A DNA stretch of 64,000 bases from Actinomycetes bacterium (GCA_031415695.1 JANOSH010000001.1:43988-107987), one strand, 5' to 3'. Counted from the first letter of the stretch, positions 2,457 to 42,493 are shown. Numbers and translations: made by a program. The notes: generated from the letters alone by a model not told the origin.

Positions 2457-5400
2457 TCACAACAATGGTGGACATTGCGTGGCCGTTTCGCGCGCATTGT
2501 GTGATTTCTGGCACGATGTGCTCGCTTGAACGACGACTGACCGTCGCTCTGTCATTAACACCCCGCGACCCGCAGGAAATTCGAGCCCCGGGCGCAGGGC
2601 GAATCCGGCTGCGGTCTGAATATCACCTGGAACCGGCTGAAGCGCCAGCACCTGGCGTGTGCGACGAAGGTCTCCAAGCCATCCAGCAACGTACATGGGA
2701 CCAAGTATTCGGCTATCAACTGCCACAACCAACCTCACAGTGGACGAGCGAACAGCTCGTTCCAACAACGGTTCGACCAGCGAGCCGTCGAATCTTGCTG
2801 CGTCGTCGACAAACACGACGGCAGGCGTGTCGCTTCCGAGTAGTTCGGTCAGCCGCTCCACGCCATCACGGGCGTCGGCCACGACGACACCACCGGTGTT
2901 GGAAAGGCTTTCGCGTACGGCGCGCAATACCGAGGATCGACCCGAGCCGGGAGGACCAGCGACGAGCAGATGATCGTAACGAAGGTCAGCGCGAACCACA
3001 TCCAGGTCAAGGTCGGACAACCCAAGCGGAAGGTCCCACCACGTTGCCGTCGAGAACGGACTAACCCGATCGGGCAGGCTGGGGGCAAGCAGTGTTGCAC
3101 CGACCGGCGCAATCATGTCGGCCGATGCCGTTGCCACCTGCACGAGATGTCCATCGATCCAACCTCTACCTGCCGGCCACGATGCCGACGCCGCTATCGA
3201 CGCAGGCACACCCGCGTCGACCAATGAGTCGCGATCGCTTTGGCGAAGCGTCAATCGTGCCGAGACCGCTGCCAACACCTGGCCGGGCACAGCTATGCGA
3301 CGGTCGGCTGAAACAACGACATGGATTCCGACCGACCGACCTTCAAGAGTCGCCCTCATCGCAATATCTGCCCACCGTGCGGTATCGGAACGATGAAAGA
3401 GCGTCGTGAGATTGGCAAAACCGTCGATGACAACGAGGATTGCTGGCTCCGCAGTGTCGGTGTCGTCTACGAGCCGACCGCCGCGGCGCGTCTTGCGCCG
3501 CCGATTCATTTCGTTGTCTAGCCAGCCGAACAGGCGCGTGAGGTGTTCCATGTCGTCGGGCCCCGCAACCCCAATGCAATGCGGTACGCCGCCAAGCTCA
3601 CGCAGGCCTCCCCCAGCGAGATCGATCGCCAAGATCCGACGCCGTGACGGTGGCTCCTCACGAGCCCACGACAATGCCGCCGTCCGCAACGTCGTACTCT
3701 TCCCGCTTCGGCTTGTACCCAACACCACAAGGCCGCCCGTGCGCTCCAGATCGATACTCCAAACGTCCTGGCACTGCGCGTCGGGGCGGTCGACGACGCC
3801 AAGCAACAAGCCGCCTGACGAGGCGAGACCGGCGAGCCCTATGTTGTCGGTCAACGGTGGGGTCCACGGCCGATGAGGTGCCGGGTGGTCACTGCACACC
3901 TGGACTGCCACCTCGACGAGTTGTCGCAACTGATCACCGGTTGAGGCTGGACCTTTTGACAGCGGGGCGAAGGCGTCACCCAAGGGCGTAACGCGTACCG
4001 GTTCGCTTCGCGACGTGGCTGTCGGAGCTCCAGCCCAAGCGACCTGGACTGCGGAAAGAGCCTTCGGACCCGTTCGCACCAAGGCTCGGCCGCGAAGCGG
4101 CACCGGGATATCGGCCGCTGCACCAGAGCCGATGATGCTGGACGATTCCGCCGAGTCAAGCAACCGCAGGGCAACGCGCAGATTCATATTGGCGAGAATC
4201 TTGTCGCTCACAACGCCCGTCGGACGCTGCGTCGCAAGCACGAGATGAATCCCCAGGCTTCTGCCTCGTTGGGCAACGTCGATCAGCCCGTTCACAAAGT
4301 CAGGAACCTCGTGGACCAACGTGGCGAATTCATCCACCACGAGGAGCAAACGAGGCGGGGCATCGTGCGGGGCGACGTCGAGCATCTCGTCCAGGTCGCG
4401 CGCCCGACCCTCAAACAACGTCATCCGGCGAGTCAGTTCGGCCTGTAGTGAAACCAAAGCCCGCAGCGACATCGCTGGCTCCAAGTTCGAAACGGACCCA
4501 ACCACATGGCCGAGACCGTCAAAGGCTGCACTGGAAGCCCCACCCTTGTAGTCGATGAAAAGCACGGTTACGTGATGCGGCGGGTACTGGGCTACGACAC
4601 CGGCTACCAAGGTCTGAAGAAACTCGCTCTTGCCCGATCCCGACGTGCCAGCAACAAGCATGTGCGGACCGTCGCCAACGAGATCAAGGGTGAACACGCC
4701 ATCGTTGGTCACCCCGATTGGAATCTTCAACGTTCGTGGATCGGCGTGAGCCCAGTTGTTCTCGATATGACTGCGATCCCCGAAGGTTGCACTCAGAACA
4801 TCGCTCAGAACAACCCGGGCCGGCAACGCCGCTGTCGAACCAAGAGCGTCTGCATCGGTCAGTGGAGCAAGCGCTCGGGCATGACGAGTGGCAGCGACGG
4901 TTGACGCCAACTCAAGTTCAACATCGACCACAGGTTTGGTGGCGTCGGTCAGCCACAACCGACCTTGGCCGGTGGTTCGACAGTCGATGACGGCACCACA
5001 ACCTCGCGGAACGAGAGCCTCGGAATCGCCTAACCACACCAAACTGGCGTGGTTGAGAGACAGTTGTACCGCAGCAACGAGCGCCGGGTTCGCACCCACC
5101 CGTTCATCTACAACGATCACAAGCCACGGAAACGCTTGAGCCTGAGATTGGGGCGCATTGCGTTCGGCCAACACAGACAGAACTCCCGACAAGAGGCGAT
5201 CGGCATCGGGCGCTGTGGTGGTGACCAACTCGCCGATAACCGGACTAGTGGTCGAACGGCTGTGGGGCAACCAGTTGAGCCAACTCGGCTGACGACTCGG
5301 GTGCAGCGCGCAGGCCACAACCAGATCTTGTGGACTGTGCAGCGTGGCGCATTGGAGTAGCGCCGAGTTGACCAACCCAGTGGTCGTTACCCCATCACCC

Positions 5401-9592: not shown

Positions 9593-9817
9593 TCAGGGGC
9601 CAACCGCAGGGGTGGTGTCGATGTTGTTGGCCAGATCACGGACCTTGGTCATGATGATCGCGCCAGCAGCGAGGGCGATGCCTACAGCCACGCCGGTGAG
9701 AACGACTTTTTCGACGGTCGTGAAACCAGCGTCGTCGGTGTCGATGTCGAGTGCGCACGCCAGACGGCGAAGTGCCAAAGAGGTACGGCACTGGATAAAG
9801 GTGAGAGTGGTCAGCAT
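9593..9817 (-). CDS. flp: Flp-family pilin (prepilin)
   Basis: It is 74 aa from the internal Met, with a charged leader, an AG/FTTVEK processing-like motif (Gly then Glu at +5) and a hydrophobic helix VVLTGVAVGIALAAGAIIMT. It sits between tadE and tadC. Confidence 0.6.
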   Translation of the reverse strand: MLTTLTFIQCRTSLALRRLACALDIDTDDAGFTTVEKVVLTGVAVGIALAAGAIIMTKVRDLANNIDTTPAVGP

Positions 9818-9885
9818 GAGTGGGCTCCTTGGCCGAGGTGGTACTTGACAGTGGGAATGACAGACAGCGAATCGGAAACGAAGTT

Positions 9886-10764
9886 CTAGGAATTCAGAAC
9901 TTCCATGACCGCCGGATAGCCGACGAACAAGATGAATGCGCACACAAGTAGCAACAGCGGGAACACCATCCGTGTCGACGACTGTTCGGACGCGGCTTCT
10001 TCGTGGGCGAGAGCGCGATCGCGAAGCGTGCGCGCCTTGGCCACCAAACTCGCCCTCACCGATGCGCCTTCGCTACCGGCGAGATGCGCAGCGCTGGACA
10101 GTTCGACAAGGTCGTTTACGCCGTATCGCTCGCCGAGGGAGCGCAACGCCGCCCACGGCGTAACAGCAGTCAGTCGCGATTCACCGAGCGCTCGACGAAG
10201 CTCGACGAATGGCCACGACCCACCAGCCGATGCAGCCTGCTCGAGCGCCCCGGTGACGCCTTCATCAGCGGTGAGCAGTAGAACGACCAGGTCGATGTAC
10301 GACCCGAGGCAGTGTCGGAACTCGCTTCGTCGACGAGCAACGACCCGGTGCAACTCAATGGTCGGGATCGACCACCCCAGCCCGGCACCGAGCAACGAAA
10401 CCCACAACGGGAACGCCGTCACCACAGCAATGCCCGCCAGCCACATCGCCCCACCGACGAGCGATCCACCAAAGAGTCCGCAGAGCGCTCCGGCCATTTG
10501 CAGCCCAAGATGCACTTCAGCTGATCGACCTGCGATGGCCAGATCGGCACTTGCAGTGCCGGCGGCACCGATCGGACGGCCGACGAATGTCGCCCCAAAT
10601 CGGCCAGCCCGCGAGACGACGCCCGTGACTGTTTCACGTTGCTCGGCCGGTCGATTGAGACGAGCGGCAGCCTCGATCAAACTCCGTTGTTCAGGCGCGA
10701 GGGATGAACCGCCAAGCCAGAGGCCGAGTCCAATGGCGAGTCCACTCAATAGCGCAAACATCAT
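9886..10764 (-). CDS. tadC: Flp pilus assembly inner-membrane protein TadC (T2SS-F domain)
   Basis: T2SSF-like topology and a C-terminal conserved region (VTPWAALRSLGERYGVNDLVELSSAAHLAGSEGASVRASL...). The internal start MMFALLSGL at 10764 forms an ATGA overlap with the tadB stop. The long ORF-track N-terminus (Arg/Cys-rich) was rejected. Confidence 0.8.
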   Translation of the reverse strand: MMFALLSGLAIGLGLWLGGSSLAPEQRSLIEAAARLNRPAEQRETVTGVVSRAGRFGATFVGRPIGAAGTASADLAIAGRSAEVHLGLQMAGALCGLFGGSLVGGAMWLAGIAVVTAFPLWVSLLGAGLGWSIPTIELHRVVARRRSEFRHCLGSYIDLVVLLLTADEGVTGALEQAASAGGSWPFVELRRALGESRLTAVTPWAALRSLGERYGVNDLVELSSAAHLAGSEGASVRASLVAKARTLRDRALAHEEAASEQSSTRMVFPLLLLVCAFILFVGYPAVMEVLNS

Positions 10765-11594
10765 TTGGCTGGCTCCTCGCTGGCCACAAGAACCCGTGGC
10801 GTAGGGCGAAAGCGGCTCAATGCGCTCAGCCACCACAGCGCCAACCCGGCAAGGCTGGCTACGCCAAGCAGAACCAACTGTCCTGACACGCTGCGATACG
10901 GCTCCATGAATGAGCCGCCAAATGCCGCAAGACCAACGAAGAAGACCAGCGAAAATCCAATGAGTGAACGAGCTTCGGACCGCACTGCTGAACGTCGTGC
11001 GTCGATACGGAGTCGAAGCGCTACACGGTCGCGAGCAACGTCGGCGGTAGCGGAGAGCAACTGACCAACGTCGCGTCCCGAACGCGTGGCGGCGAGAAGC
11101 AGCACGGACGCAATCAGATCCGCTGTGGCATTGTCCAGGTCGTCGGCCCATGTCCGCAACGCAGTTCCGAGGCGTTGATGCTGGATGCGGCGAGCAAGGG
11201 TCTGAACGGTTCCCCGAATCGCGAGTGGGGAGATGTCAGCCGTGCTGCGGATGGTCTCGGTTATGCCCTGGCCAGCTACAAGAGTGTCACGGAGTTGTTC
11301 GGCCCAGCTAGCAAGTGCTTCGATCGTCTCTGTGTCGCGACGAGTCTGCCCTCGGCCCGACGACCCCCCGGCGAGGATCGCACCAGCCACGCCCGCGACG
11401 AGGGCGGCAATCGGCCATCTCGTCGCGACACCGACTACAGCTGCCCCTGTCACGCCAGCGGCAACCCGCAGCAGTAGCCGACTGGCAGGTCGCACACCAC
11501 GGCGCCGCGCCAGCGCATGCTCGGATCTGCGGGTTGTCCCAAGGATCAAACCAAGGCCAACGCACGCCCCGCACACCACCACCAGGCCACTCAT
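10761..11594 (-). CDS. tadB: Flp pilus assembly inner-membrane protein TadB (T2SS-F domain)
   Basis: Polytopic membrane protein with a T2SSF-like middle domain (ETIEALASWAEQLRDTLVAGQGITETIRS). The start at Met10 gives an ATGA overlap with the tadA stop. Confidence 0.75.
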   Translation of the reverse strand: MSGLVVVCGACVGLGLILGTTRRSEHALARRRGVRPASRLLLRVAAGVTGAAVVGVATRWPIAALVAGVAGAILAGGSSGRGQTRRDTETIEALASWAEQLRDTLVAGQGITETIRSTADISPLAIRGTVQTLARRIQHQRLGTALRTWADDLDNATADLIASVLLLAATRSGRDVGQLLSATADVARDRVALRLRIDARRSAVRSEARSLIGFSLVFFVGLAAFGGSFMEPYRSVSGQLVLLGVASLAGLALWWLSALSRFRPTPRVLVASEEPAK

Positions 11595-12949
11595 CGCGCG
11601 GCTGCTCGAGGGGCCGACCATCCGGCCGTATGGTCGATGGGCGAGTAACCGAACCGGGTAAGAAGTTCACGATGTCGGGGTGAGAGCGCTGCCTTGGGTT
11701 GGAGCCGACGACCGTCGTCAAGCCCGAACACCTCGCTCGACGCCACGCGCCCCGAATCTGCCAGCCCAGTCACCTCACGAATCGACGAAACGTAACGACG
11801 CATTGGCTGGTTTGCGCCGCGGTCGGCATCGACAAAGACCACGAGGTGGACAGCGCCGGCCACCAGGGCTGCTGTGGCATCGTGCGACATTCGTTCGGGG
11901 GCTTGAATGGCATAGGTGGCCAGGCGGCTAAAGGTGGTCTCGCTGGAGTCGGCATGGATGGTGCACATGGAGCCGTCGTTACCTTGGCTCATAGCGTTCA
12001 ACATCGGGATGACCTCGTCGCCGAGAACTTCGCCGACGATGACTCGGCTTGGATTGAGACGAAGGGTCGCTTGGACGAGCCGAGCGACGCTGACTTCACC
12101 TTCGCCCTCCACGTTGGACTGTCGCGAGTGCAGTGGAACAACGTTCGGATGTCGCGAAGATCGGTGAAGCCCTAGTTCGAGCAGGTCACGTTCAATCGTC
12201 ACCAATCGTTCGTAAGCGGGGATTTCGTGGCACATCGCTCGAAGTAACGTCGTCTTGCCGGTGTTCGTACCACCGGAAACCAGAATGGTTCGGCGAGCGA
12301 GAACGGCCGCTCGCAGAAATTGCGCGGCTTGCTTGGTGAGCGCCCCACGCCCTACTAGATCATCGAGTTGCAAGTCGTGGAGCCGGTGGCGACGGATCGA
12401 AACAATCGGGACGGGTGACATGCCACGCTCGGTTCGCCCGCCGAGCACGGCCGTGAGACGGCTGCCGTCGGGGAGCTGAAGGTACAGCACTGGCTCGGTA
12501 GTGTCCCATCGCCGCTCGCCAAGGCCGAGTCGACGAGCGGCAGCCTTGATCACTTCAATGAACTCGATTTCCGACGACGCCACCGGGGCAACGGTCACCA
12601 CTCGGCCATCCGCGTACTGAACAAAAACTTCAGCGTGTCCGTTCGCATCGATCGACTCGACGTCGGGGTCGTCGAGATACATCTGCAGACCAGCCAAACC
12701 GAAAAGGTGAGCGAGCAATCCATCGTTGAGGACGGCGATTTCGTTGCCTGATAGCCGGGCGCGACCCGCTCGCAGTCGACCGGCATCGAGGTTGGCTAGT
12801 TCGTCATTGGCAAGTCGAATTGCCAGTACTCGTTCGTCGGCAGTGTCAAGGAGCGAGCCGTTGGCGACGAGACGTTCAACCTCGTCGGGCAGGCGACGCG
12901 ACACTGCTGAAACAACATGACGCAATTCGTCTGTGTCTGTCGAACTCAT
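11591..12949 (-). CDS. tadA: Tad secretion ATPase TadA/CpaF (type II/IV secretion NTPase)
   Basis: Walker A ILVSGGTNTGKTTLLRAM, Asp box and His box are typical of CpaF/VirB11-like ATPases. There is an ATGA overlap with the upstream tadZ stop. Confidence 0.9.
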   Translation of the reverse strand: MSSTDTDELRHVVSAVSRRLPDEVERLVANGSLLDTADERVLAIRLANDELANLDAGRLRAGRARLSGNEIAVLNDGLLAHLFGLAGLQMYLDDPDVESIDANGHAEVFVQYADGRVVTVAPVASSEIEFIEVIKAAARRLGLGERRWDTTEPVLYLQLPDGSRLTAVLGGRTERGMSPVPIVSIRRHRLHDLQLDDLVGRGALTKQAAQFLRAAVLARRTILVSGGTNTGKTTLLRAMCHEIPAYERLVTIERDLLELGLHRSSRHPNVVPLHSRQSNVEGEGEVSVARLVQATLRLNPSRVIVGEVLGDEVIPMLNAMSQGNDGSMCTIHADSSETTFSRLATYAIQAPERMSHDATAALVAGAVHLVVFVDADRGANQPMRRYVSSIREVTGLADSGRVASSEVFGLDDGRRLQPKAALSPRHRELLTRFGYSPIDHTAGWSAPRAAAR

Positions 12950-13719
12950 CTGATCACCATGGGCCGCATAGCGAGCGTGGGAGGCGGGAGTGCAGTGCTA
13001 CGACTGGCGGGCAACCGCTTGACGACCGCTTGCACCAATGGCACCGCGCTGAGCAGAAGACGACTTTTCGATCTCAATCGTGACGACCTCGAATGCCCTG
13101 CGAGGAGCGATGCCCCGAAGGGGTCGTCAGCCAGCGCAACCGTAGCCTGTTGGCCCAGAAAGGCCAACAGTTCACTGGGGGCAAAAGGCGCCGAGCCAAC
13201 GACGGCCACAACTATGGGTACCCCCCTGTTGGCGAGTACCTCGACGAGCCGGCGTGTATGAACGGCGTGGGCAACAGTAAGACCCCGGGCGCGAGGATCT
13301 TGGCGTAGACAGACCACCGCAACGTCGGCCGAGATCGTTGCGTCGGGCAACATTTCGGGGTCAACTCGACCAACGTCAACGATGAATGTCGCCGTCGCAT
13401 CGCGCTGGGACATGGGGAGCAAGCCACGGCTCACTGCGACGATGGCGCCTTGGGCCTCGGAGGCAAGCACTGGAGCAGCAATGACTCTGATGTTCCCGGC
13501 CAGCAACTGGGTGTGGGCGAAAAGCGCAGCGGGCTCGCGAGCGCTGGCCGCGGCCGTAACCAGTCCTGGCGCAGAGGCGAGATCGAAGCGGCTGGCGATG
13601 TCACCTCCGGCAGAGTCGAGTTCGATCACCGCGACGTTGTCGGTTGTCCAGGCCGAGGCGAGCGCCAGCGCGGTAGTCGTGACGGCCGAGCCCTTGGTTC
13701 CGAGTACCACGATGTTCAC
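12946..13719 (-). CDS. tadZ: TadZ/CpaE/Ssd-like ParA-MinD-fold pilus assembly protein with degenerate P-loop
   Basis: The N-terminal NIVVLGTKGSAVTTTALALASA resembles a deviant Walker A in which the invariant Lys and Gly are lost. Position and size (257 aa) match CpaE/Ssd of actinobacterial tad loci. There is an ATGA overlap on both sides. Confidence 0.6.
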   Translation of the reverse strand: MNIVVLGTKGSAVTTTALALASAWTTDNVAVIELDSAGGDIASRFDLASAPGLVTAAASAREPAALFAHTQLLAGNIRVIAAPVLASEAQGAIVAVSRGLLPMSQRDATATFIVDVGRVDPEMLPDATISADVAVVCLRQDPRARGLTVAHAVHTRRLVEVLANRGVPIVVAVVGSAPFAPSELLAFLGQQATVALADDPFGASLLAGHSRSSRLRSKSRLLLSAVPLVQAVVKRLPASRSTALPPPTLAMRPMVIR

Positions 13720-14366
13720 GGTGCCACCGGGCCGGAGACCCGAACAGCAATGGTGGGGGGCTCGTCGGGCCCGACCACAATGAGTCGGACGTCCTTGCTG
13801 ACGGCCACCAGACGAGCGGCCGATGTGGCTAGCCGAATGCTGACCCCAACGGCTGTTGAACTTTGATCAGGTCGCTTGACGTCGACTACCTCGCCATCAA
13901 ACGCGGTGTCACCGACTAGCACTCGAACCAGCGACGTCGACCGAAGGCCGAGTGGAATCGCTTGACTCGGGAGGCTGATGGCGGCGATTGCCTGGCCGCT
14001 GGAGACGGGCATGTGCGTACCGATGTGGCGAGGCTGCAACGGTGCGCCTGCGGTCAAGTGCATTTGGGCGATGCGTTGGGGCATGCGGACAAACTCTTCA
14101 GCGGTGACAACGTCGAGGTGAGTTCCCGTATGCAGATCGATCTCTTCGATGTCGGCGCTTGTCACGAGGGCGCCGGCGCTGACGTCGTGACGCAGTATGA
14201 CAATCGTGCGTTGCTGGCCTGCACCTCTGTACAGCTGCAAGAACACCAACCCGCCGCCGACCACTAACAGGCAAGCAACCGCCATGCGAGCCGGGTTTCG
14301 AGGAGCGCTACGTGCGCCTCGTGGTGGCGCTGCGGGTGAAGTCATGGCGAGCAACGTACGGATCAA
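13716..14366 (-). CDS. cpaB: Flp pilus assembly protein CpaB/RcpC (SAF-domain)
   Basis: N-terminal TM anchor (MAVACLLVVGGGLVFL), then a SAF-like region (RTIVILRHDVSAGALVTSADIEEIDL) and a C-terminal beta-rich domain. It is the first gene of the tad block. Confidence 0.75.
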   Translation of the reverse strand: MIRTLLAMTSPAAPPRGARSAPRNPARMAVACLLVVGGGLVFLQLYRGAGQQRTIVILRHDVSAGALVTSADIEEIDLHTGTHLDVVTAEEFVRMPQRIAQMHLTAGAPLQPRHIGTHMPVSSGQAIAAISLPSQAIPLGLRSTSLVRVLVGDTAFDGEVVDVKRPDQSSTAVGVSIRLATSAARLVAVSKDVRLIVVGPDEPPTIAVRVSGPVAP

Positions 14367-14472
14367 ACGGGTGGTCCGAAAGACCTACAGCCAAGACTTG
14401 AGAGCTACTCAACAAGTAACTGACTGGTTCGAACGACTCATGAATCCATACAGACGTGGCGTGACGTTGCGT

Positions 14473-15144
14473 TTACCTTCCCCGCCGACCAGGGGACGAT
14501 CGACGGGACCGATGCAGGTACACCAACGTCAGGACCACCGACACGTAGGTGATGGTGTTGTACACGAAATGAAGTTGCACGTCGCTGACCTTGAGGGCAG
14601 CATCGCCAATGCCCGGGCACGGGCAGCCCGAGTTGACAATGACGTGATACATGATGACGACGTGCTCGATCATGTGCCAGGTTTCTAAACCCGCACCAAG
14701 GAACAAAAACAACTGATACGCCCACTTCGGCACCGTACCGGCAAGCATGAGTTGTCGAGCACCGACAACCAAAAGGTAGATAGTGATCAGGTACGAAAGG
14801 TTGAACACGAAGTGCATCCACTCGGCGGTGTCTTGAAAGTTGAAGACATACCCGAGAAGGCCGAACGCCTTTTCGCTCGGGATACCGAACCGGTAGACCT
14901 GAATGAGCTGAATGATGTGCTCGACAACATGTACACCTTGGATGCCTACGACAGCGGCGTAGAACGGGTAGAAGCGCGGCGATGCCGACGGCAACCCTCG
15001 CCACGCCGCGGACACATTCGACTTTGAGGACGCTGAAACGACAGACACCGATTTTCCTTTCGAAGATTTGGGTGGGAAATCCACAAGAGCCGAGTTCGAG
15101 CCGCACCGTGCAACAAGAACCCGGCAACTGCGACAATCCTTCAC
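14473..15144 (-). CDS. Integral membrane protein with duplicated W-x-H-x-[IV]-x-H/EH motif and CPCPG (unknown function)
   Basis: It has about five predicted TM helices. The motif is internally repeated (AEWMHFVFNLSY and ETWHMIEHVVIMYHV), and a Cys-Pro-Cys-Pro-Gly lies before the last helix. Local GC (~50-55%) is clearly below the window average. The start is uncertain. Confidence 0.45.
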   Translation of the reverse strand: MKDCRSCRVLVARCGSNSALVDFPPKSSKGKSVSVVSASSKSNVSAAWRGLPSASPRFYPFYAAVVGIQGVHVVEHIIQLIQVYRFGIPSEKAFGLLGYVFNFQDTAEWMHFVFNLSYLITIYLLVVGARQLMLAGTVPKWAYQLFLFLGAGLETWHMIEHVVIMYHVIVNSGCPCPGIGDAALKVSDVQLHFVYNTITYVSVVLTLVYLHRSRRSSPGRRGR

Positions 15145-15156
15145 ATTCGGCTCAGC

Positions 15157-15747
15157 TCAGAGCGGATCGCAACGGTTCGGTCCTGACGGGAATTGGAACG
15201 GATCGCCGTATGCATGCTCCGGGTAGAAGCCAAACGTTCCTACGCCCCGATCCTCGGTCTGAACGGCTTCAAAACCATTTCGAAGTTCGATAGGCCCGTT
15301 CCCCGACAGCCGAAAGGCGTCGTCGAACGTGCCGTGGAACAGTGTGGGCGCCACCTCGGCATTGGCCGACTCAGCTTCGTGTTCGTACTCCCAGTTGTAG
15401 GTATTGCCGTCTTGGTCGACAGCGGTTCCCACCCCATGCCCGCGTCCGTACTCTGTTGTCACGCCGTCGCGAGTCTTGGTCCTAAGCCATGTCGATAACA
15501 CTCCTTTGCCGACGAGGATTGTGCCTTCGGGGACAAGGCTGCACACCAAATACGGCTCGAGCGCCGACGTTTCACCGGGACCCACCATCATCCAGGCAAT
15601 CGGAGTATCGGGCAACTGTTCTAGCTTCCCCGATCCAGTGTCCTTGTCGCCTGTGGCCGAGGCCCCGCTTGCCAACCCGATTGACGTGATCGCGAACAGG
15701 GTGGCTAAACCGAGGGCCAACCTCGTCCGCGTGTGGTTCTTAACCAT
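15157..15747 (-). CDS. Secreted hypothetical protein (signal peptide)
   Basis: From the internal Met the protein begins MVKNHTRTRLALGLATLFAITSIGLASGASA, a signal peptide, and is followed by a Gly/Asp/Thr-rich mature domain. It lies 12 nt upstream of the membrane protein in the same low-GC patch. Confidence 0.5.
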   Translation of the reverse strand: MVKNHTRTRLALGLATLFAITSIGLASGASATGDKDTGSGKLEQLPDTPIAWMMVGPGETSALEPYLVCSLVPEGTILVGKGVLSTWLRTKTRDGVTTEYGRGHGVGTAVDQDGNTYNWEYEHEAESANAEVAPTLFHGTFDDAFRLSGNGPIELRNGFEAVQTEDRGVGTFGFYPEHAYGDPFQFPSGPNRCDPL

Positions 15748-15877
15748 GACTCTCTCCTTGTGTGTCGAGCCCACACACCTTGTGCGGTGCCATCACTCGG
15801 CACAGTCGCAGGACAACCTGACAAAAACCTGACAATCGACACGAACAGTGATCTAGCCCGGCCTTTGAGCGGCTGCA

Positions 15878-16873
15878 GTGTCGTCCACTCGTCATCAGCG
15901 GTATCGTGAAGGTCGTATGGTGACGGTTCTCTCGCACACTCCCCAATCGAACGACCCCTGTTGGTGCGGCAGCGGTCGAAAGTACAAGCGCTGTCACAAA
16001 GGTCTCGAGGGCCGGGTTCTCCCTGGCAACGTCAGTCCAATGCGGTCCGTACCGTCCCACATTGGTCGGCCGCCGTACGCAGATTCGGGCATTCCAGCCC
16101 GTTGGAACGAATCGGCAATCAAGTCCGACGACATCATCGGTCGCATGCGCCGAACAGGCGTTGTGGCAGCCGAGATACTTCGGTTGTCAGGCGAAGCGCT
16201 GCGCGTTGGCATGACAACCGACGAACTCGACGTGTATGTCCACGATCTCTACATCGAGCGTGATTGCTATCCGAGCCCGCTCAACTACGGCGAGTTCCCC
16301 AAAAGCCTGTGTACGTCGGTCAACGAGGTCATCTGTCATGGCATCCCCGACGATCGACCCCTTGAAGATGGCGACATCATCAACCTCGACATCACGGCGT
16401 ACCGAGAGGGTGTCCACGGTGACTGCAGCGCCACCTTCGCAGTTGGTTCCGTTTCGCCCGAGTCGAAACAACTCATGGACGTCACGGCCGAGTGCCTGAG
16501 GCTTGGTGTGGCCGCGGTGCGGCCTGGCCGGCCAGTAAGTGACATTGGTCGAGCAATTGAGGATCATGCCAAGAGGTACCGCTACGGAGTCGTGCGATCA
16601 TTCATTGGCCATGGCATCGGCGAGCAGTTCCACACCGATTTACAGATCCTCCACTACTACGACCCGCGCGCTACAACCGTTATGCGACCGGGTATGACCT
16701 TCACAATTGAGCCGATGATCACGCTCGGCACGGTCAAACATGCCACGTGGGATGACGACTGGACCGCCGTTACCACCGACGGCAAACGCACCGCCCAGTT
16801 CGAACACACTGTGTTGGTCACAACGGACGGCGTCGAAATCCTTACGAAGGAAGCCGGTTCAACCACCAGCTGA
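15878..16873 (+). CDS. map: Methionine aminopeptidase type I with N-terminal SEC-C zinc-binding motif
   Basis: SEC-C motif CWCGSGRKYKRCH. MetAP metal ligands are present (D...DITAYREGVHGD, HGIGEQFH, FTIEP, FEHTV). The start could instead be Met14 at 15917. Confidence 0.9.
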   Translation: MSSTRHQRYREGRMVTVLSHTPQSNDPCWCGSGRKYKRCHKGLEGRVLPGNVSPMRSVPSHIGRPPYADSGIPARWNESAIKSDDIIGRMRRTGVVAAEILRLSGEALRVGMTTDELDVYVHDLYIERDCYPSPLNYGEFPKSLCTSVNEVICHGIPDDRPLEDGDIINLDITAYREGVHGDCSATFAVGSVSPESKQLMDVTAECLRLGVAAVRPGRPVSDIGRAIEDHAKRYRYGVVRSFIGHGIGEQFHTDLQILHYYDPRATTVMRPGMTFTIEPMITLGTVKHATWDDDWTAVTTDGKRTAQFEHTVLVTTDGVEILTKEAGSTTS

Positions 16874-18221
16874 GCAGGGATTCGGGGTCCACACAGTATG
16901 CCTCGATCATCGTACGGCCATACTCTGCGAGTCGACCCAAGCGCAAGGCCTCACCGGCTTGGGTCCACGGTCGGGCTGGCACTGGCAGCGTTAGCAGTTG
17001 ACGAGCTGACAGCTTGACCGCGTCGTGCGACAACCCACCGCCTCCATAGTGCGATAGCGCCCACGACGTTGCCACGGGCGAGCACACCACAGCGGCCAGA
17101 TCCCACAGGTCGATACCGGCGTGGGGGGTGACGGTAAGAACTGGCACCGAAGGCAACCAAGCACCGGCTTCATCGACACAGGCCTCGAGCACCTTCGACT
17201 GGGTTGCTACGAGCAACTTGGGGACAAGGCGCGATGCCGCCCAGGCCGCTATGGCCGGGCTGAGGCCGTCAAGAGCCACCCTCGGGGCGTCGTACCGGGT
17301 CTTGGCGAAGCGCACGGTGCGCTGGCCCCACAGTGAACGTCCGAGGTCGATAAGGCCCGATGTGATAAGTCGCGGACCCGTGGCGTCATCGGAGACGTGC
17401 CCGACCAGGCCGTAGTACTGGTCGCGAAAGTCTGCGGTGGCTGAGGCAAGCGATGCGAGAGTCTCGTGGCCATACAACTCGACTTGCGGATGTTGGGCAA
17501 GGAGATGCGACCACGTGGGGCGAGTTGCCTCGAACTGTACGGCGGATTGCGGCTGGAACGATGGTCCGAACCATCGGCGCACCGGCTCCTGGCGACCCGA
17601 GCGTTCGAGAATCACGGCGACGGTCAGGACCGAGGCGTCAAAAACCGATTCGCCAGCAATCCACAGACTCGTCAGGGCCGCGTGTTCAGAAACGTTGCGG
17701 CGGATATCTTCGATATCGCGTGTGGCGAAAACTGACTGGGGCAAGACGAAGGCCACTCGACCGCCGGGGCGAACCAGTGGGACCGCCATCGCAAGGAATA
17801 AGGCTGCGGTGTCGGCGTACGGCCCCCCACCAAGCGGAGATCTGCCTCCCCTGGTCGACCGCCCCGCCATCTGACTGAGGAACGGCGGGTTCCCGATAAC
17901 CAGGTCAAATGGCGGTTCCGTCGACCAGTCAACCGTGAACGCGTCGCCGTGTCGCAGGTCAGCGCGGTCGCCCAGTGCACTTCGAGCATTGCCAATCGCC
18001 ACACCGTCGACATCAACGCCAACGACATCGAGATCGGTACCGAGACGACGGACCAGTGCGCTGAGGAACCGCCCATCGCCACAGGAAGGGTCCAAAACCC
18101 TGTGGATTGGCCCGTCCATGCCCTCCAGAGCTCGGTCAATAACAAAATCGACCAGGCTCGCCGGGGTGTACCACGACCCCAATTGGCGGCGGCGTTCGCG
18201 GTCGGGCTGGGTAGACGTCAC
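16842..18221 (-). CDS. N6-adenine DNA methyltransferase, gamma-class (M.TaqI/Eco57I-like), apparently orphan
   Basis: Motif [14 protein letters not shown], motif [13 protein letters not shown] and motif IV NPPF are present. A C-terminal ~250 aa is consistent with a target-recognition domain. No restriction endonuclease gene is adjacent. Confidence 0.75.
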
Positions 18222-25056: not shown

Positions 25057-26055
25057 TCAGTCGAGCAGTCCTTGGATGATGAACTCGACGCGTCGGTTGA
25101 CCTGCAGCGCGTCGCCACTGCCATCGAGGTTAATGGGCTCGGCCTCGCCCAGCGCCTCGCCTGACAACCGCTGGACCGACACTCCCTTGGATGCAAAGTA
25201 GGCAATGGCAGCAGCTACCCGCTTTTGAGACAGTTCGAGATTGTGTTCAGCGCTTCCACGCGAATCGGTGTGTCCGCGAATGACGATTGTGACCTTGGGG
25301 TTCTGGTTCATGAGAACCACGCCCAAGTCGAGTAATTGTCTGTACTCCGGCCGCAACACCGCGGAGTCAGAGTCGAAAAGCACCAGGTCTCCAACATAGA
25401 GCGGTGCGCTTGACGGCACCGGAGCCCCGGCAATTCGGGTGTATTGATCAATGACGTTTTCAGGGCCGACGATCGCCGCCCCACGCGCAATGATTTGCGA
25501 AGCAATGGTGTCGCTCGGCACCACACCACGCAAGTACAGCTTGCCGGCGGTGTACACAGCCCACCGGACTGGTTGAGTGGCCGATTGTGGTGAACTTGCT
25601 GCCGGTGCCGCCGTAGAGGGCACGGCCGGGGCAACCGTCGGGGCCGGTGTGGTGGATGGCGCCAGGGTCGTTGTACGAGGAACTGTTGTTGCGATCGTTG
25701 ATGTTGCTGCGATCGTTGATGTTGTTGCGATCGTTGATGATGGCGTTGTGGTCGATGCGAGCAACGAGGTTGAAGGCGTCGTTGCCGACGTCGACTTGCT
25801 TGACGGCCGAGACCGGGACATTCCTACGGCAACGGCGCACAGAACCAGAACGGGTAGCATCACCAGCGCTGCGAACCGCACGGCCGATCGCAGGGTCGAC
25901 GGCCTATGACGACGGGGCGCGGGCTCGCGATCCTCGCTCTCCAGAGCAAGTGTTACAACCGAGCCGACCTCGTTCGGCGACGCCGCAGTGTCGTCATCAA
26001 CAGATAACCGTTGCGCAGCCCTCGGTGGAGGAAGCCGCCAATCCCATTCCGCCAT
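25057..26055 (-). CDS. OmpA/MotB-family peptidoglycan-binding protein with TM anchor and Thr/Ser/Ile-rich repeat linker
   Basis: C-terminal OmpA_C motifs (IRGHTDSRGSAEHNLELSQKRV, NRRVEF). A TM helix (FAALVMLPVLVLCAVAV) precedes the repeat linker TIATTSTIAATSTIATT. The internal start at 26055 was chosen so as not to overlap the divergent CoA-transferase gene. Confidence 0.7.
   Translation of the reverse strand: MAEWDWRLPPPRAAQRLSVDDDTAASPNEVGSVVTLALESEDREPAPRRHRPSTLRSAVRFAALVMLPVLVLCAVAVGMSRSRPSSKSTSATTPSTSLLASTTTPSSTIATTSTIAATSTIATTVPRTTTLAPSTTPAPTVAPAVPSTAAPAASSPQSATQPVRWAVYTAGKLYLRGVVPSDTIASQIIARGAAIVGPENVIDQYTRIAGAPVPSSAPLYVGDLVLFDSDSAVLRPEYRQLLDLGVVLMNQNPKVTIVIRGHTDSRGSAEHNLELSQKRVAAAIAYFASKGVSVQRLSGEALGEAEPINLDGSGDALQVNRRVEFIIQGLLD
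25686..25742. repeat. Tandem 18-bp repeat (~3 copies, gcgatcgttgatgttgtt-like) encoding a TIATTS hexapeptide repeat inside the OmpA-like gene
   Basis: Direct inspection of the sequence: ...tgttgttgcgatcgttga tgttgctgcgatcgttga tgttgttgcgatcgttga... Confidence 0.8.
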
Positions 26056-26191
26056 CCAGACACGGTGACCGCGCCGCCCGCAGGTGTCGAGCCTGTTCGC
26101 ACATCTTGATCGTGGCTTGACTAGCTTGCCACGTACGGTCGATGCACAGTCTGGATGAGAGATCGGCCCAGCGGGACAGTACCGTTCGGCC

Positions 26192-27430
26192 ATGACTGAA
26201 ACCGATGTGCTTCCCGGCCCACTCCACGGCGTCGTCGTCCTCGATTTGTCGCGTGTGCTTTCAGGCCCGCATTGTGGACGCATGCTTGCTGACCTCGGTG
26301 CCACGGTCATTAAGGTCGAGCCTCCCGAGGGCGACATGACTCGTTTTGGGTTTCCTCGGCCCGGTGGCATCGCGTCGTACTTCAGCCAACAAAACTGTGG
26401 GAAGTCCAACGTAAGCATCGACCTTCGCCAGCCAGATGGGCTGCGCCTCGTCAAGGACCTCGCCGACACGGCGGACATCGTTGTCGAGAATTTTCGGCCG
26501 GGGGTGATGGATCGTATGGGGATCGGCTTCGCAACGCTCGCGGCGTCGAACCCTCGCGTCATCCTGGCATCAATTAGCGGGTACGGACAGACGGGTCCCT
26601 GGACCAAGCGCCGGGCCTTTGCACCGGTGGTCGGTGCCGAATCTGGATTCACCTGGACTCAAGGCGAGGCTCGGGGCAATCAGTTCGCCAACGACGCCGT
26701 CAGCCACGGCGATGTCTACAGCGGCCTGGAGCTCCTGTCCGGCATCCTGGCCGCGTTGTACCAGCGTGAGCGAACCGGGCGCGGACAGTGGGTAGAGGTG
26801 TCGATGACCGAGACCCTCTTGTCGGTCAATGAGCACGTGCATTGGGAACTCCTGAAGGACGACTTCGACGGCAGCAACGAGGTTCCGTCGTTTCTCCCTG
26901 CCGACTATCCGGTACTGATGACAGGTACAGGCGAGATGGTCATCGTTGCCGGGCACGCCGCATCGAACGGCAACTTTCAGAAGTTCATGGCGTTGTGCCG
27001 CCGCGACGACCTAGCCAGTGACCCGACCCTGTCCACGGTTCGCGGTCGCAGGGAACGACTTGCCGATATCCATGACGCGCTCAACCAATGGACCTCCACG
27101 TACACCGATCTTGTGGAGCTCGAAAACGCTCTGGCCGAGCAGGGATTCGCGATGGGCGTGTTGCGCACTGTTCAAGATGTAGCCGAGACCGATTGGGCGC
27201 GCGAGCGCAACGCCATCGTCGAGGTTGACAACCGCGTCGGTGGTCTTTTGCGGCTACCGAATTCCCCGTGGCATTTCAGCGATGCTCATTCTGGCATTCG
27301 AGGTACACCGCGCTACCGGGGTGAAGACAATCGATCGGTCTTATCGTCGGTGCTTGGCCTGACTGATGAGCGGATCGACGAGCTCGAGCAATCCGGTGTG
27401 TTGTCGTCACGTGTTCCAGCGGCGCAATAG
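26192..27430 (+). CDS. Family III CoA-transferase (CaiB/BaiF-like)
   Basis: N-terminal GPLHGVVVLDLSRVLSGPHCGRMLADLGATVIKVE, typical of CaiB/BaiF, with a conserved Asp region downstream. Confidence 0.85.
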   Translation: MTETDVLPGPLHGVVVLDLSRVLSGPHCGRMLADLGATVIKVEPPEGDMTRFGFPRPGGIASYFSQQNCGKSNVSIDLRQPDGLRLVKDLADTADIVVENFRPGVMDRMGIGFATLAASNPRVILASISGYGQTGPWTKRRAFAPVVGAESGFTWTQGEARGNQFANDAVSHGDVYSGLELLSGILAALYQRERTGRGQWVEVSMTETLLSVNEHVHWELLKDDFDGSNEVPSFLPADYPVLMTGTGEMVIVAGHAASNGNFQKFMALCRRDDLASDPTLSTVRGRRERLADIHDALNQWTSTYTDLVELENALAEQGFAMGVLRTVQDVAETDWARERNAIVEVDNRVGGLLRLPNSPWHFSDAHSGIRGTPRYRGEDNRSVLSSVLGLTDERIDELEQSGVLSSRVPAAQ

Positions 27431-36989: not shown

Positions 36990-37695
36990 CTATCTGTCGG
37001 TAGCGGAGTCGATTCTGGTGATGAGCTGCCGAACAGCCGCAGCAGCGTGGGCAACGTCGGTGACGTGGAAGCCGATGTCGTCGGCCATGGCCCGGTAGCC
37101 GGCATGCCATGGTTCAGGGATTGTGACCGTCGGGGGCCACGCATGTTTCGCCCGACCGGCGAATACCTCGATACACGCGAGCCGGGCATCGCGCCATCCA
37201 TTGTCGCTGACCAGTTCGCCGAGTAGCTGGAGGTCGAGAAGGTCTCTGAATCGATCGTTCACTCTATCGACGGGCTGTTCGGTGCACGCGTGGAGTTTCT
37301 GGGCAATCTGCCAGCGAACCGCAATGCATGCCACGGTCGTCGGTCCCTCGATGCCAACATGTGCCAGCGATAGCGCTGGTACATGATCCACGTCGTCACC
37401 CATGCTGGCCTCGACGCTGGCGATTTCGAATGGCACGGTCACGACGGGCTTGTTCCGGTAGGCGATTTTGATCTCGCAGCGCCGGGTCGAGGTGTTCGGC
37501 AAGATCGGCGGTGTCGGCTCGCAGAGCGGTGTCGAAGTCTTTCGTCGCTCGTGCCGAACCTCGGGTACGCAGTTCCATTGCGACACCGCCCTTGACGAGA
37601 AAGAGCGGCTGACCTTGATGGCTGTCTCGGGCAGAGTCCAAGATTGCCGCTGCGTTACGCGGTGCAGCATCGTGAATGGGCGAGGCCTCGGTCAT
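36990..37695 (-). pseudogene. AbiEii-family nucleotidyltransferase toxin (type IV TA), frameshifted
   Basis: The N-terminal 99-aa ORF (37396-37695) carries LFLVKGGVAMELR...TKDFDT, the AbiEii NTase motif. The remaining ~190 aa lie in a different frame (36990-37670), so a frameshift is implied near 37400-37500. Confidence 0.6.
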
Positions 37696-38261
37696 GATGT
37701 GACCTCCGCTAAGCGAGACATTTCGTCGCCAATGAGGAGACCGCGTCGTTGCGCCCCGTCGATCGCTTGGCGGATCAGTCGATCATCGAGGTGACGCTCG
37801 ATGCCGTCGAGAATCGCTCGCAGCGGTGTAACTGCAGGAATGCCGTCGACGTTGGTGACGTCGCCCACCTCGAGGTTGCGAACGTGCACGGCATACGACG
37901 GCGGGACCTGGCGACGGACTCGGGCGGTCCTTGGGACGGTGACGTGAATCTTGGTCGGGTTGACATCGCACAGATCCCACAGGTCGAGGGCGGAGTCGTG
38001 CGAGATCACACCCAACCTGTCGGGCCACAACGTGGCCGCCATCAACTCGTCGCGGTCGGTCGGAGGGAACGACTTGAATCGGTACAGCCCTCGGCACACT
38101 CGACTGAGGTGACCGTGGCGTTCCATATCAACGAGCACCTGATTGCGCGCCCCGATTCCCGCTGTGTCGTGGGGGGTCACGTAGCCATACTGATCCGCCG
38201 CGATGTCGAACAGTGCTGCGTACCATTTCCCGGGCATGCCAAAAGTATGGAGGAAATCCAT
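37692..38261 (-). CDS. AbiEi-family antitoxin/transcriptional regulator (type IV TA)
   Basis: N-terminal wHTH YVTPHDTAGIGARNQVLVDMERHGHLSRVCRGLYRF, typical of AbiEi. It overlaps the start of the AbiEii ORF by 4 nt. The start was moved to MDFLHTFG, because the ORF-track N-terminal 82 aa are Ser/Thr/Arg-rich and implausible. Confidence 0.65.
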   Translation of the reverse strand: MDFLHTFGMPGKWYAALFDIAADQYGYVTPHDTAGIGARNQVLVDMERHGHLSRVCRGLYRFKSFPPTDRDELMAATLWPDRLGVISHDSALDLWDLCDVNPTKIHVTVPRTARVRRQVPPSYAVHVRNLEVGDVTNVDGIPAVTPLRAILDGIERHLDDRLIRQAIDGAQRRGLLIGDEMSRLAEVTS

Positions 38262-38517
38262 AAAGTTGGCAACCCCCGAAACGATGATCCCAGGTCTTGA
38301 TGGAGTTCGTGTCGTGACACCTTCCAGACCGCATCTGCATCGTATGCGCACTAGGCCGATCGTTCCCGGCTGTGCCCTCCGCTCGGGGCTACTCGTCGAA
38401 CTTGTGGTCGAAGCATTCAACCGTCGCAAGGTCGGCAGCGGCCCCACATCGTGGGTCCTGGGCCGCGAACTCACCGACGAGGAGTTCGACGACGGAATTA
38501 CCGTCACCGACGCATGA

Positions 38518-38806
38518 CTAGGCGGCTCCTCGTCGACACCGGTGTCCTCTGGTCGTTCGTCGTTTCCAACTCCTTGTGATGCCTGGTGCGTTAGCGAGGC
38601 GGGTGTCGGTCGTGAGCAGCGCTGTCGCGCCGATCATCTCGGTCAGCGCGACATAGGTGGCGTCGTAGGCGCTGAGATTGTGCCGCAGTGCCCACATTCT
38701 TGGTCGGAGCCAGTCGGCCGGGAAACGGGCCAGGGTAAGGCGGGTGAAGCCGACGAGCGCGGTTGGCGACGAGTTCGACGATGACGCTGGCATCGAGAAC
38801 TTTCAA
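38518..38806 (-). pseudogene. VapC-like PIN-domain toxin, frameshifted
   Basis: A TTG start overlaps the antitoxin stop (TTGA at 38803-38806) and gives LKVLDASVIVELVANRA, a PIN N-terminus with the first catalytic Asp. The C-terminal PIN region (YDATYVALTEMIGATALLTTD) is in another frame (38518-38793). A ~1-bp indel is therefore implied near 38740-38760. Confidence 0.6.
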
Positions 38807-39045
38807 TTGTTGCGTCCTTCGTGCAAGGCGGCGAGGATGGTTTCGCGATCGACGCGACCTCGAACGCTCGCCTGGGTTTCGCGGATTACCGCAGCGTTGT
38901 CGTGCGCTCTTTGAGCGCGCTTGGCCAGATGTTCGAGTTCGCGCAACACGTACCGAGTAAGGGAGAGGCCCTGCGCCTCGGCCGCGCCGGCTAGGGCGTG
39001 GTGCACGTCGTCGGGCACGTCTCGGACCTGGATCACCTTGGGCAT
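38803..39045 (-). CDS. VapB-like antitoxin (ribbon-helix-helix type)
   Basis: MPKVIQVRDVPDDVHHALAGAAEAQGLSLTRYVLRELE shows an RHH-like pattern. It lies immediately upstream of the PIN gene and overlaps it. Confidence 0.6.
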   Translation of the reverse strand: MPKVIQVRDVPDDVHHALAGAAEAQGLSLTRYVLRELEHLAKRAQRAHDNAAVIRETQASVRGRVDRETILAALHEGRNN

Positions 39046-39220
39046 GGTCGCCGCAATACCTCTCATGGGTGCACACTGCACCCACATTTCGAGATTGGTG
39101 CTTTTCGGGCCTTCGCCGAGCTCGACTACAAGGCCATTGTCGACGAGATTGCTGAGTGAACGTCGGAGCCGCGGTGCGGCCCTGAGCACGTTTGCGGCAC
39201 GCCCAGATTTGCCACGCTAC

Positions 39221-42394: not shown

Positions 42395-42493
42395 CGCCAA
42401 GCTTACGACCGTAGCGTAGTTGTCGGCTTGGTCTTGACGAACTGCTCTGCAGGGGCTCAACTGACAGCAACGACGCTTTGGGTGGGGGCATCC

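Follow-up and report, generated by a model that had tools for sequence, protein, structure and literature searches.

What does a type VII secretion system (T7SS)-type motor ATPase do as the last gene of a Tad pilus operon? The question is raised by positions 2457 to 14366 of a 64,000-nucleotide (nt) stretch of an Actinomycetes bacterium genome (GCA_031415695.1, JANOSH010000001.1:43988-107987), the whole of which is referred to here as the window. Nine open reading frames (ORFs), called on the minus strand of the 64-kb window and numbered by positions of the whole stretch, run from 14366 to 2457, all in frame and each with one terminal stop. The genes for a Tad pilus are followed there by one for a membrane protein that combines a LysM and a SARP module (LysM-SARP) and by one for an EssC/EccC-like ATPase. 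Together these genes form a Tad (type IVc) pilus operon of the actinobacterial type on the chromosome, and their host, to judge by the relatives described below, appears to be an Acidimicrobiia bacterium. The explanation that we put first, with about even confidence, is that a standard Tad operon in one clade captured a T7SS-family motor, which is co-expressed with and functionally tied to the pilus genes, is most plausibly docked on the LysM-SARP protein, and exports a cargo.

The terminal gene encodes a protein of 1375 amino acids (aa) that matched the NCBIfam models EssC, EccCa, and EccCb with E-values from 3e-134 to 6e-71. The scores were all below the equivalog cut-offs of these models (449 against 778, 324 against 509, and 239 against 347 bits, respectively), and models of DNA translocases gave 75 bits for FtsK (cut-off 1566) and 21 bits for TraB (cut-off 800). 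A DNA translocase of the FtsK/TraB type was rejected on account of these low scores and of the three ATPase domains. Pfam, NCBIfam, and an AlphaFold2 model together gave an architecture of a ubiquitin-like (Ubl) domain, an FHA domain, two transmembrane (TM) helices, and three P-loop domains, the first of which (D1) has its Walker A and Walker B motifs intact. An earlier note, made from the sequence of the window, had described a T7SS-type triple FtsK ATPase and proposed scans of it for FHA and YukD; domains of both kinds were recovered along with the three ATPase domains, the FHA domain in a degenerate form. The Ubl domain is a beta-grasp fold fused to the N-terminus (residues 1-80, window 6345-6584) and is conserved in the family consensus; the ubiquitin-like component of T7SSs, known as EsaB, YukD, or TsxB, is present in this form. 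The gene identities proposed in the same note were likewise confirmed, by Pfam for TadA, TadB, TadC, and TadE and by NCBIfam for the EssC/EccC-like ATPase.

The reported absence of T7SS partner genes from the window also held. Pfam was run on 40 ORFs, of which 30 were large and 10 small or intergenic, and returned zero matches to EccB, EccD, EccE, MycP, EssA, EssB, EsaA, and WXG100; no Pkinase match, relaxase, ComEA, or ComEC was found among the window ORFs scanned. A small hidden Markov model of WXG100 proteins was built from 4 sequences encoded beside related ATPases; this model, a weak test that the Pfam scans complement, matched nothing in the window and nothing in four syntenic loci. Precomputed Pfam matches showed no WXG100 gene within 10 kb in the related loci L003, L171, L172, and L173, and no other T7SS core gene occurred in the window or, in the relatives, at a distance of up to 10 kb. 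A doubtful ORF of 68 aa on the 3' side of the ATPase gene was considered as a small substrate and rejected, as it had neither a Pfam match nor a tblastn match in any related locus.

The linkage of the ATPase to tad genes extends beyond the window. The five closest ATPases are the window protein (P0001), P0002, P0003 (with three relatives 88-91% identical), P0004, and P0005. Identity among these five, in any pairing of the window protein and the four relatives, is 41-50%. All five are directly preceded by a LysM-SARP gene, and by the whole tad operon wherever the contig is long enough. The supposition that homologues of the ATPase are syntenic with tad loci was thus borne out in five lineages, each with the order tadE, LysM-SARP, ATPase. 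The junction between the last two genes consists of a 4-nt overlap, a 1-nt overlap, a 2-nt gap, or a 3-nt gap. The next-closest ATPase, P0006, is not tad-linked, and the five tad-linked proteins form one clade (neighbor-joining bootstrap 94/100) nested in a family associated with WXG100 and kinase genes, from which one recruitment followed by retention is concluded. Values of dN/dS were 0.12-0.14 for the ATPase, 0.14-0.19 for LysM-SARP, and 0.03 for tadA; the ATPase and LysM-SARP are therefore functional, evolve under purifying selection, and do so faster than the pilus core.

The pilus genes themselves differ between loci with and without the ATPase. TadA of the window is 72% identical to that of ATPase-bearing loci and 29-43% identical to that of other Acidimicrobiia loci (36-43% for those at the same metAP...radA position). 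RadA differs much less, with 63% and, for loci at that position, 54-62%. On these identities, which Tad variant a locus has goes together with whether it carries the ATPase, and the two TadA classes at one locus suggest two deeply diverged or exchanged Tad variants. Genes on the 3' side of the ATPase vary by lineage and include a methylase, YjbR, a methyltransferase, disA, or radA directly. Among loci without the ATPase, radA often lies within a few kb 3' of LysM-SARP, and in two of them (L013 and L052) the largest ORFs downstream of LysM-SARP (at most 868 aa) are on the opposite strand, and neither an ATPase homologue, by tblastn, nor an alternative partner gene was found. The slot of the tad/LysM-SARP operon between metAP and disA/radA is conserved in Acidimicrobiia (L003-L083, against 832-16873 in the window). 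Methyltransferase genes flank it variously, such as an N6 methylase gene beside metAP in the window (16842-18221) and an N6/N4 methylase gene directly after the ATPase in L003 (14399-15874).

In the wider family, ATPase relatives at 29-39% identity adjoin WXG100 or Ser/Thr-kinase genes. The commonest neighbors at 86 ATPase loci were Ser/Thr kinases (40), three groups of WXG100-like small proteins (31, 31, and 18), two groups of FHA proteins (26 and 22), and MoxR (14). Two loci of this family bear on the Tad linkage. In L142 (960-14269), a tad operon lies on the opposite strand about 0.8 kb from an FHA-type ATPase homologue and is divergent from it, which is a second, independent adjacency of Tad and ATPase genes. 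In L164 (428-8125), a Ubl-FHA-type ATPase homologue is directly preceded by a gene for a 1006-aa LysM/pseudo-P-loop protein, without a recognizable BTAD domain, that can be aligned (E-value 2e-15) to one half of the window's LysM-SARP, the half made up of TM, LysM, TM, and pseudo-P-loop. The contig begins at this gene, the upstream content lying beyond it, and a DUF6571 protein is encoded 3' of the ATPase. No plasmid accession was shared by the ATPase and LysM-SARP matches among those listed.

LysM-SARP is far more widespread than the ATPase linkage. A pattern scan derived from a 9-sequence alignment found relatives in 351 genomes, with one genome taken per species; the best 80 of these were almost all labeled as Acidimicrobiia or as unclassified Actinomycetota metagenome-assembled genomes, and two were labeled Bifidobacterium. 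The synteny of LysM-SARP homologues with tad loci was confirmed: among Acidimicrobiia loci whose upstream DNA spanned 6 kb or more, 48 of 50 had tadA or tadB upstream on the same strand. Relatives were also found on 56 plasmids, and the two plasmids inspected, from Streptomyces and Xylanimonas, both encode SAF, TadZ-like, CpaF, and two T2SSF proteins, a small gene, three TadE proteins, and then the LysM protein. A "LysM, BTAD" protein is tabulated at the same place for the tad locus of a Cutibacterium acnes plasmid (PMC3666418). A profile search of 1.84 billion cluster representatives returned 3,163 matches at E-values of at most 1e-30, and the homologues carry LysM (PF01476) and BTAD Pfam domains. 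Because the Acidimicrobiia loci, the plasmids, and the C. acnes locus share this arrangement, LysM-SARP is ordinary in a Tad operon: by these comparisons of gene order, the genes from cpaB to tadE together with LysM-SARP are the standard actinobacterial Tad module, of which LysM-SARP is the regular last gene. The earlier view of it as a special fusion of this locus was accordingly abandoned.

The AlphaFold2 model of LysM-SARP (pLDDT 79.7, pTM 0.66) places three TM helices at the N-terminus, a LysM region at residues 164-222 modeled as strand-helix-helix-strand, and a fourth TM helix at 304-324, which is followed by the motif RRRRQKR, a helical stalk, an alpha/beta domain at 387-612, and a winged helix with BTAD at 635-876. 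A profile of the family matched solved LysM structures with E-values from 8e-5 to 1e-3, and the C-terminal part has the composition of a SARP, with an OmpR-type winged helix followed by the BTAD helical domain. The four TM helices and the positive-inside rule would place LysM outside the membrane and the remainder in the cytoplasm. The unit of TM helix, stalk, and pseudo-ATPase (residues ~325-612) was EccC-like by two structure-comparison methods (6sgw_F/J and 8rin) and by a weak hhalign match. In the model, this unit, whose FtsK/EccC-fold domain lies between LysM and SARP and has no Walker motifs, resembles the N-terminal half of EccC. No description of an FtsK/EccC fold in a LysM-BTAD Tad accessory protein was found in the searchable literature. 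The family is very large and uncharacterized, and the fold is a first structural handle on it, one that bears on how the Tad machine is built in Gram-positive envelopes, including the module on the Cutibacterium and Streptomyces plasmids.

The FHA domain of the ATPase has changed in the columns of its binding motif. Against the consensus GR-S-R-H-NG, the window protein reads GT-DS--, with another residue for the Arg and without the Ser, His, and Asn-Gly. All five tad-linked ATPases have lost the Ser and four of them the Arg, and the GR...S pattern is kept in 13 of 17 other relatives. Judged from these residues, the FHA domain of the tad-linked ATPases would be phosphothreonine-independent.

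Taken together, these results make a functional link between the Tad genes and the ATPase likely; the physical hybrid machine suggested in the earlier note is no more than a possibility. The link is argued for by the tight junction kept in five lineages at 41-50% identity, by the single origin of their ATPases, by the purifying selection on both the ATPase and LysM-SARP, by the EccC-like fold that LysM-SARP shares with the ATPase, by the FHA domain that changed in step with its new context, and by the Tad variant that goes with the ATPase. It is also argued for by the recurrence of Tad-T7SS adjacency, in L142 and in the published subtypes T7SSg and T7SSh (PMC11217815), and by L164, where a distant ATPase homologue is also preceded by a LysM/pseudo-P-loop protein. 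On this explanation, a complete T7SS-family motor was recruited once from the WXG100/kinase-associated family and has been kept as the terminal gene of the operon. It would be made together with the Tad and LysM-SARP proteins, presumably from one transcript, and be tied to them in function. The motor would most plausibly dock on LysM-SARP, either FtsK-fold to FtsK-fold or through the phosphothreonine-independent FHA domain. LysM-SARP would anchor the machine to peptidoglycan and probably feed back on transcription, and a putative protein cargo would be exported at the site of the pilus.

Several observations weigh against this capture of a motor by the Tad operon. Neither a WXG100 gene nor a candidate cargo turned up in the window or, for the relatives, inside 10 kb, and every T7SS subtype described has a WXG100 protein (PMC11217815); as the search covered the window and flanks of up to 10 kb, a separate T7SS locus may lie elsewhere. 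The degenerate FHA domain is also seen in relatives that are not tad-linked (P0012, P0014, P0016, and P0023), including some WXG100-linked relatives without kinase neighbors, and is not unique to the tad-linked clade. The hhalign match of the EccC-like unit in LysM-SARP had a low probability (19%). The ATPase is the exception in Tad loci and not the rule: of 65 non-redundant tad/LysM-SARP loci from Acidimicrobiia that had 3 kb or more of DNA downstream, three carried it, plus the L003 contig, and tad genes were near one of 80 metagenomic ATPase homologues (L142). From this rarity it follows that Tad works without the ATPase and the ATPase family without Tad. Lastly, the five lineages are all uncultured Acidimicrobiia with the operon at the same chromosomal position, and their gene order may in part be inherited.

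The last of these points can be taken further, to an adjacency without meaning, in which a single ancestor acquired the ATPase gene between its tad operon and radA, and its descendants merely retained the arrangement. The neighborhood shared by the five lineages, bounded by metAP at one end and disA/radA at the other, and the rarity of the linkage across both wider families would fit such an event. We nevertheless consider it very unlikely, since the same strand and a junction between a 4-nt overlap and a 3-nt gap were retained at 41-50% identity, the downstream neighbors differ between lineages, the ATPase is under purifying selection, and the change in its FHA domain went along with the new context. 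A possible, though rather unlikely, alternative is that one transcript serves two machines: a minimal T7SS motor, with its WXG100 protein and substrates encoded elsewhere, would be co-regulated with Tad, for example for adhesion and then effector delivery, and make no physical use of Tad or LysM-SARP. The motor is complete, with the Ubl and FHA domains, two TM helices, and three P-loop domains including an intact D1, its family is otherwise typical of T7SSs in its WXG100, LXG-like, kinase, and FHA neighbors, and the placement of WXG100 genes is variable in T7SSi too. Shared regulation was also considered for Tad and T7SSg/h by Garrett et al. (PMC11217815). Yet the five lineages all lack a WXG100 gene within 10 kb, whereas relatives usually have one near the ATPase gene; the LysM-SARP junction has stayed tight through deep divergence, and the EccC-like fold of LysM-SARP would be left as a coincidence.

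Other alternatives assign the ATPase a different task. As a DNA-handling device, the Tad pilus, the wall-anchored FtsK-fold/SARP protein, and the FtsK-family ATPase would move DNA, by uptake as in the Flp-dependent transformation of Micrococcus luteus or by transfer as with Streptomyces TraB. The best NCBIfam model of TadA is a "conjugal transfer-associated" family, and an FtsK fold with a C-terminal winged helix is taken by us to recall FtsK and TraB. Moreover, the tad/LysM-SARP genes of the Streptomyces plasmid lie beside a replication-relaxation gene, those of the Xylanimonas plasmid have a "conjugal transfer protein" gene about 7 kb away, and Flp pili are required for natural transformation in M. 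luteus (PMC4322843). The chance of this is slim in our view, given that the ATPase scored 449 bits to EssC against 75 to FtsK and 21 to TraB, has the three-domain architecture of T7SSs and a family surrounded by WXG100 and not by DNA-processing genes, and stands beside an FtsK-fold domain that lacks Walker motifs; genes for relaxase, ComEA, and ComEC were also missing from the ORFs scanned. A regulatory role, in which the ATPase remodels or releases the membrane-bound SARP protein and so controls tad transcription, seems hardly more than a marginal prospect. The ATPase gene does adjoin, and is coupled to, the sole gene of the operon for a DNA-binding protein, and FHA and Ubl are typical interaction modules. 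A membrane motor of 1375 aa and three ATPase domains would, however, be an expensive way to regulate, the majority of tad/LysM-SARP operons have no such gene, and we know of no precedent for an EssC/EccC-type motor as a regulator. A bolder form of the capture explanation, which we regard as doubtful, is a mixed FtsK-fold ring of the EccC-like domain of LysM-SARP and the ATPase at the Tad platform, for a WXG100-independent, LysM-anchored export of protein or DNA at or along the pilus. If it were true, the thousands of LysM-pseudoFtsK-SARP genes in ordinary tad loci would be remnants or partners of such a motor.

The features of the locus are collected in the following table.

Genes of the Tad-ATPase locus, in their order on the minus strand, with the evidence for each assignment.
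Feature	Coordinates	Strand	Basis
CpaB/RcpC-like, 216 aa, TTG start, first operon gene	13716..14366	-	operon position; weak NCBIfam flgA_cterm/SAF-like match, E 0.004
TadZ/CpaE-like, 257 aa, GTG start	12946..13719	-	placed between the SAF gene and tadA at all related loci (conserved position)
TadA/CpaF pilus ATPase, 452 aa	11591..12949	-	PF00437 T2SSE, 96 bits (cut-off 24.9)
TadB platform protein, 277 aa	10761..11594	-	PF00482 T2SSF, 26.0 bits against cut-off 25.2 (marginal)
TadC platform protein, 292 aa	9886..10764	-	PF00482 T2SSF, 25.1 bits against cut-off 25.2 (marginal)
Putative Flp-type prepilin, 74 aa, 68-bp gap before	9593..9817	-	leader, G|FTTVEK, hydrophobic helix, Glu at +5
TadE-like minor pilin, 124 aa	9217..9591	-	PF07811 TadE, 45.5 bits (cut-off 22.9)
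LysM-SARP membrane protein, 879 aa	6581..9220	-	four TM, LysM, EccC-like stalk, Walker-less FtsK/EccC-fold domain, SARP (winged helix-turn-helix and BTAD)
T7SS-type motor ATPase, 1375 aa	2457..6584	-	Ubl, degenerate FHA, two TM, three FtsK/SpoIIIE P-loop domains
ORF of 68 aa, hydrophobic C-terminus, 3' of ATPase, doubtful gene	2209..2415	-	called in Logan assembly

Assignments near or below the cut-offs were compared with the related loci. The CpaB-like gene has orthologues in L003 and L172 with a weak match to PF08666 (SAF), and its plasmid counterparts are annotated "SAF domain-containing protein". The TadZ-like protein had no family match in Pfam or NCBIfam and is 43-45% identical to its counterparts in L003, L005, and L008; its label, taken from the conserved position, is therefore putative. 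The best NCBIfam match of TadA was TIGR03819, "TadA family conjugal transfer-associated ATPase", with 194.7 bits, below the 373-bit equivalog cut-off. TadB and TadC are conserved in all related loci, with TadC 53-54% identical across the syntenic ones. The prepilin is 50-56% identical in syntenic loci, with a weak match to Pfam Flp1_like (E-value 0.13), and TadE had a weak match to TIGR03816, the Rv3654c-family TadE-like model. No Peptidase_A24 match to indicate the prepilin peptidase TadV/CpaA was found when 40 further window ORFs were scanned, and this enzyme may be encoded outside the window.

Six junctions of the operon are 4-nt overlaps of start and stop codons, four of them ATGA (12946-12949, 11591-11594, 10761-10764, and 6581-6584) and two GTGA (9217-9220 and 13716-13719). 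The ATG of tadE lies 1 nt from the stop of flp, and the ATG of flp 68 bp from the stop of tadC. The junctions listed in the earlier note agree with this in their six overlaps and two gaps, with a correction at 13716-13719, which had been given as ATGA. The 879-aa and 1375-aa genes, with the identical overlap, were also called by an independent gene caller in the Logan assembly. As 4-nt overlaps are common in compact high-GC operons, they are unremarkable in themselves; they are compatible with a single transcript and no proof of one. A scan for promoter and terminator consensus sequences yielded no more sites than shuffled sequence did and was uninformative on transcript structure, and nothing convincing in the way of SARP-type direct repeats was seen upstream of cpaB when the sequence was read by eye. 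Gene calling based on G+C at third codon positions performed poorly for the operon, with antisense ORFs outscoring the genes. The codon-position composition of the operon genes matches that of the flanking radA and metAP, and hence gives no sign of foreign origin.

Between metAP and cpaB, at 14473-15774, lie two minus-strand genes without Pfam matches, in a stretch of lower G+C (0.58). One encodes a hydrophobic protein of 223 aa, and the other a protein of 205 aa whose N-terminus resembles a signal peptide. Neither occurs at that position in the syntenic L003 and L172, and neither had a tblastn match in any related locus. Across 4001-12000, the AT skew on the plus strand is strongly positive (+0.17 to +0.18), so that the operon's coding strand has more T than A, and the dnaK region has the opposite sign. 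The skew is probably caused by the amino-acid composition of hydrophobic proteins with few Lys and Glu residues.

The remainder of the window contains housekeeping genes, toxin-antitoxin pairs, and an SNF2 helicase gene. A block at 39221-46350 has a high G+C (0.68-0.69, against ~0.61 elsewhere) and may be an acquired island; it encodes a 1079-aa patatin/DUF3376 protein, a 940-aa protein without a Pfam match, and a protein with a metallo-beta-lactamase fold. Toxin-antitoxin modules at 36990-39189, 59210-59656, and 63069-63691 include an AbiEi/AbiEii pair, a second AbiEii fragment, and an RHH antitoxin with a PIN-like remnant, as well as an overlapping pair of 78 and 129 aa that, from the look of the sequences, is a putative antitoxin and PIN-type toxin. 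Low-complexity repeats encoding INDRNN-like units were found at 25460-25840, inside or antisense to an OmpA-domain ORF at 25057-26652. This 531-aa OmpA-family ORF, whose start is putative, overlaps a CoA-transferase gene at 26192-27430.

Among the described systems closest to the locus are T7SSg (Acetivibrio and Paenibacillus) and T7SSh of the Bacillota, which always adjoin a full Tad gene set (Garrett, Higginson and Palmer 2024, PMC11217815). The statement of the earlier note that this is not a described system was therefore too strong, given that co-location of Tad and T7SS genes has been published. Both cases place an EssC-type ATPase beside Tad genes. However, WXG100 proteins are retained in T7SSg and T7SSh, as are a separate ubiquitin-like protein and other T7SS components, and no FHA domain is present in their ATPases, whereas here the ATPase is the sole T7SS gene, carries fused Ubl and FHA domains, and stands inside the tad operon after LysM-SARP in another phylum. 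Whether shared regulation or function, or coincidence, explains the adjacency of Tad and T7SSg/h was left undecided by those authors (PMC11217815).

Tad loci of the Rv3654c-Rv3660c type (TIGR03816/TIGR03819) have the same gene order through LysM and BTAD, as does C. acnes PAGK_2360-2370 in the table of that report (PMC3666418). The inspected loci of this type end at LysM-BTAD or continue otherwise, and none has an EssC-like ATPase. Moreover, the window has one TadE gene where the Streptomyces and Xylanimonas plasmids have three. T7SSd, a system of Actinomycetota like the present one, also has an N-terminal FHA domain on its ATPase, and relatives of the window protein occur with WXG100, Ser/Thr-kinase, and FHA genes. 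The window locus differs in that it has no kinase or WXG100 gene, has lost the phosphothreonine-binding residues of the FHA domain, and has an ATPase with a fused Ubl domain. A Ubl component was not found for T7SSd (PMC11217815), and a domain fused to its ATPase, TsdC, might explain this gap. By gene content, the neighborhood of the ATPase family resembles T7SSc, T7SSd, and T7SSe, with FHA, kinase, and WXG100 genes.

The ESX systems (T7SSa) offer a comparison for both terminal genes. The 1375-aa ATPase shares the overall architecture of EccC, and LysM-SARP resembles the N-terminal TM, stalk, and DUF part of EccC. In contrast to ESX loci, the window has no EccB, EccD, EccE, or MycP gene, and LysM-SARP has a SARP DNA-binding module in place of D1-D3, plus a LysM predicted to be extracellular. 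The SARP regulators AfsR and EmbR are soluble, whereas LysM-SARP is membrane-anchored, with a sensor-like LysM outside the cell and its SARP module at the C-terminus. Cooperation between a pilus of the Tad type and a separate secretion ATPase complex has a precedent, by analogy only, in the Kil system of Myxococcus xanthus, whose Tad-like pilus works with a "needleless" T3SS* (a type III secretion system) in contact-dependent killing (PMC12075869). Kil differs in secretion family, cell envelope, and phylum. Relative to the published co-location of Tad and T7SS genes, what differs here is the phylum, the lone T7SS gene, its fused Ubl and degenerate FHA domains, its place inside the tad operon, and its upstream partner with an EccC-like fold. 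The Acidimicrobiia clade is the simplest test case so far for the question, raised by Garrett et al. (2024), of whether Tad and T7SS motors cooperate.

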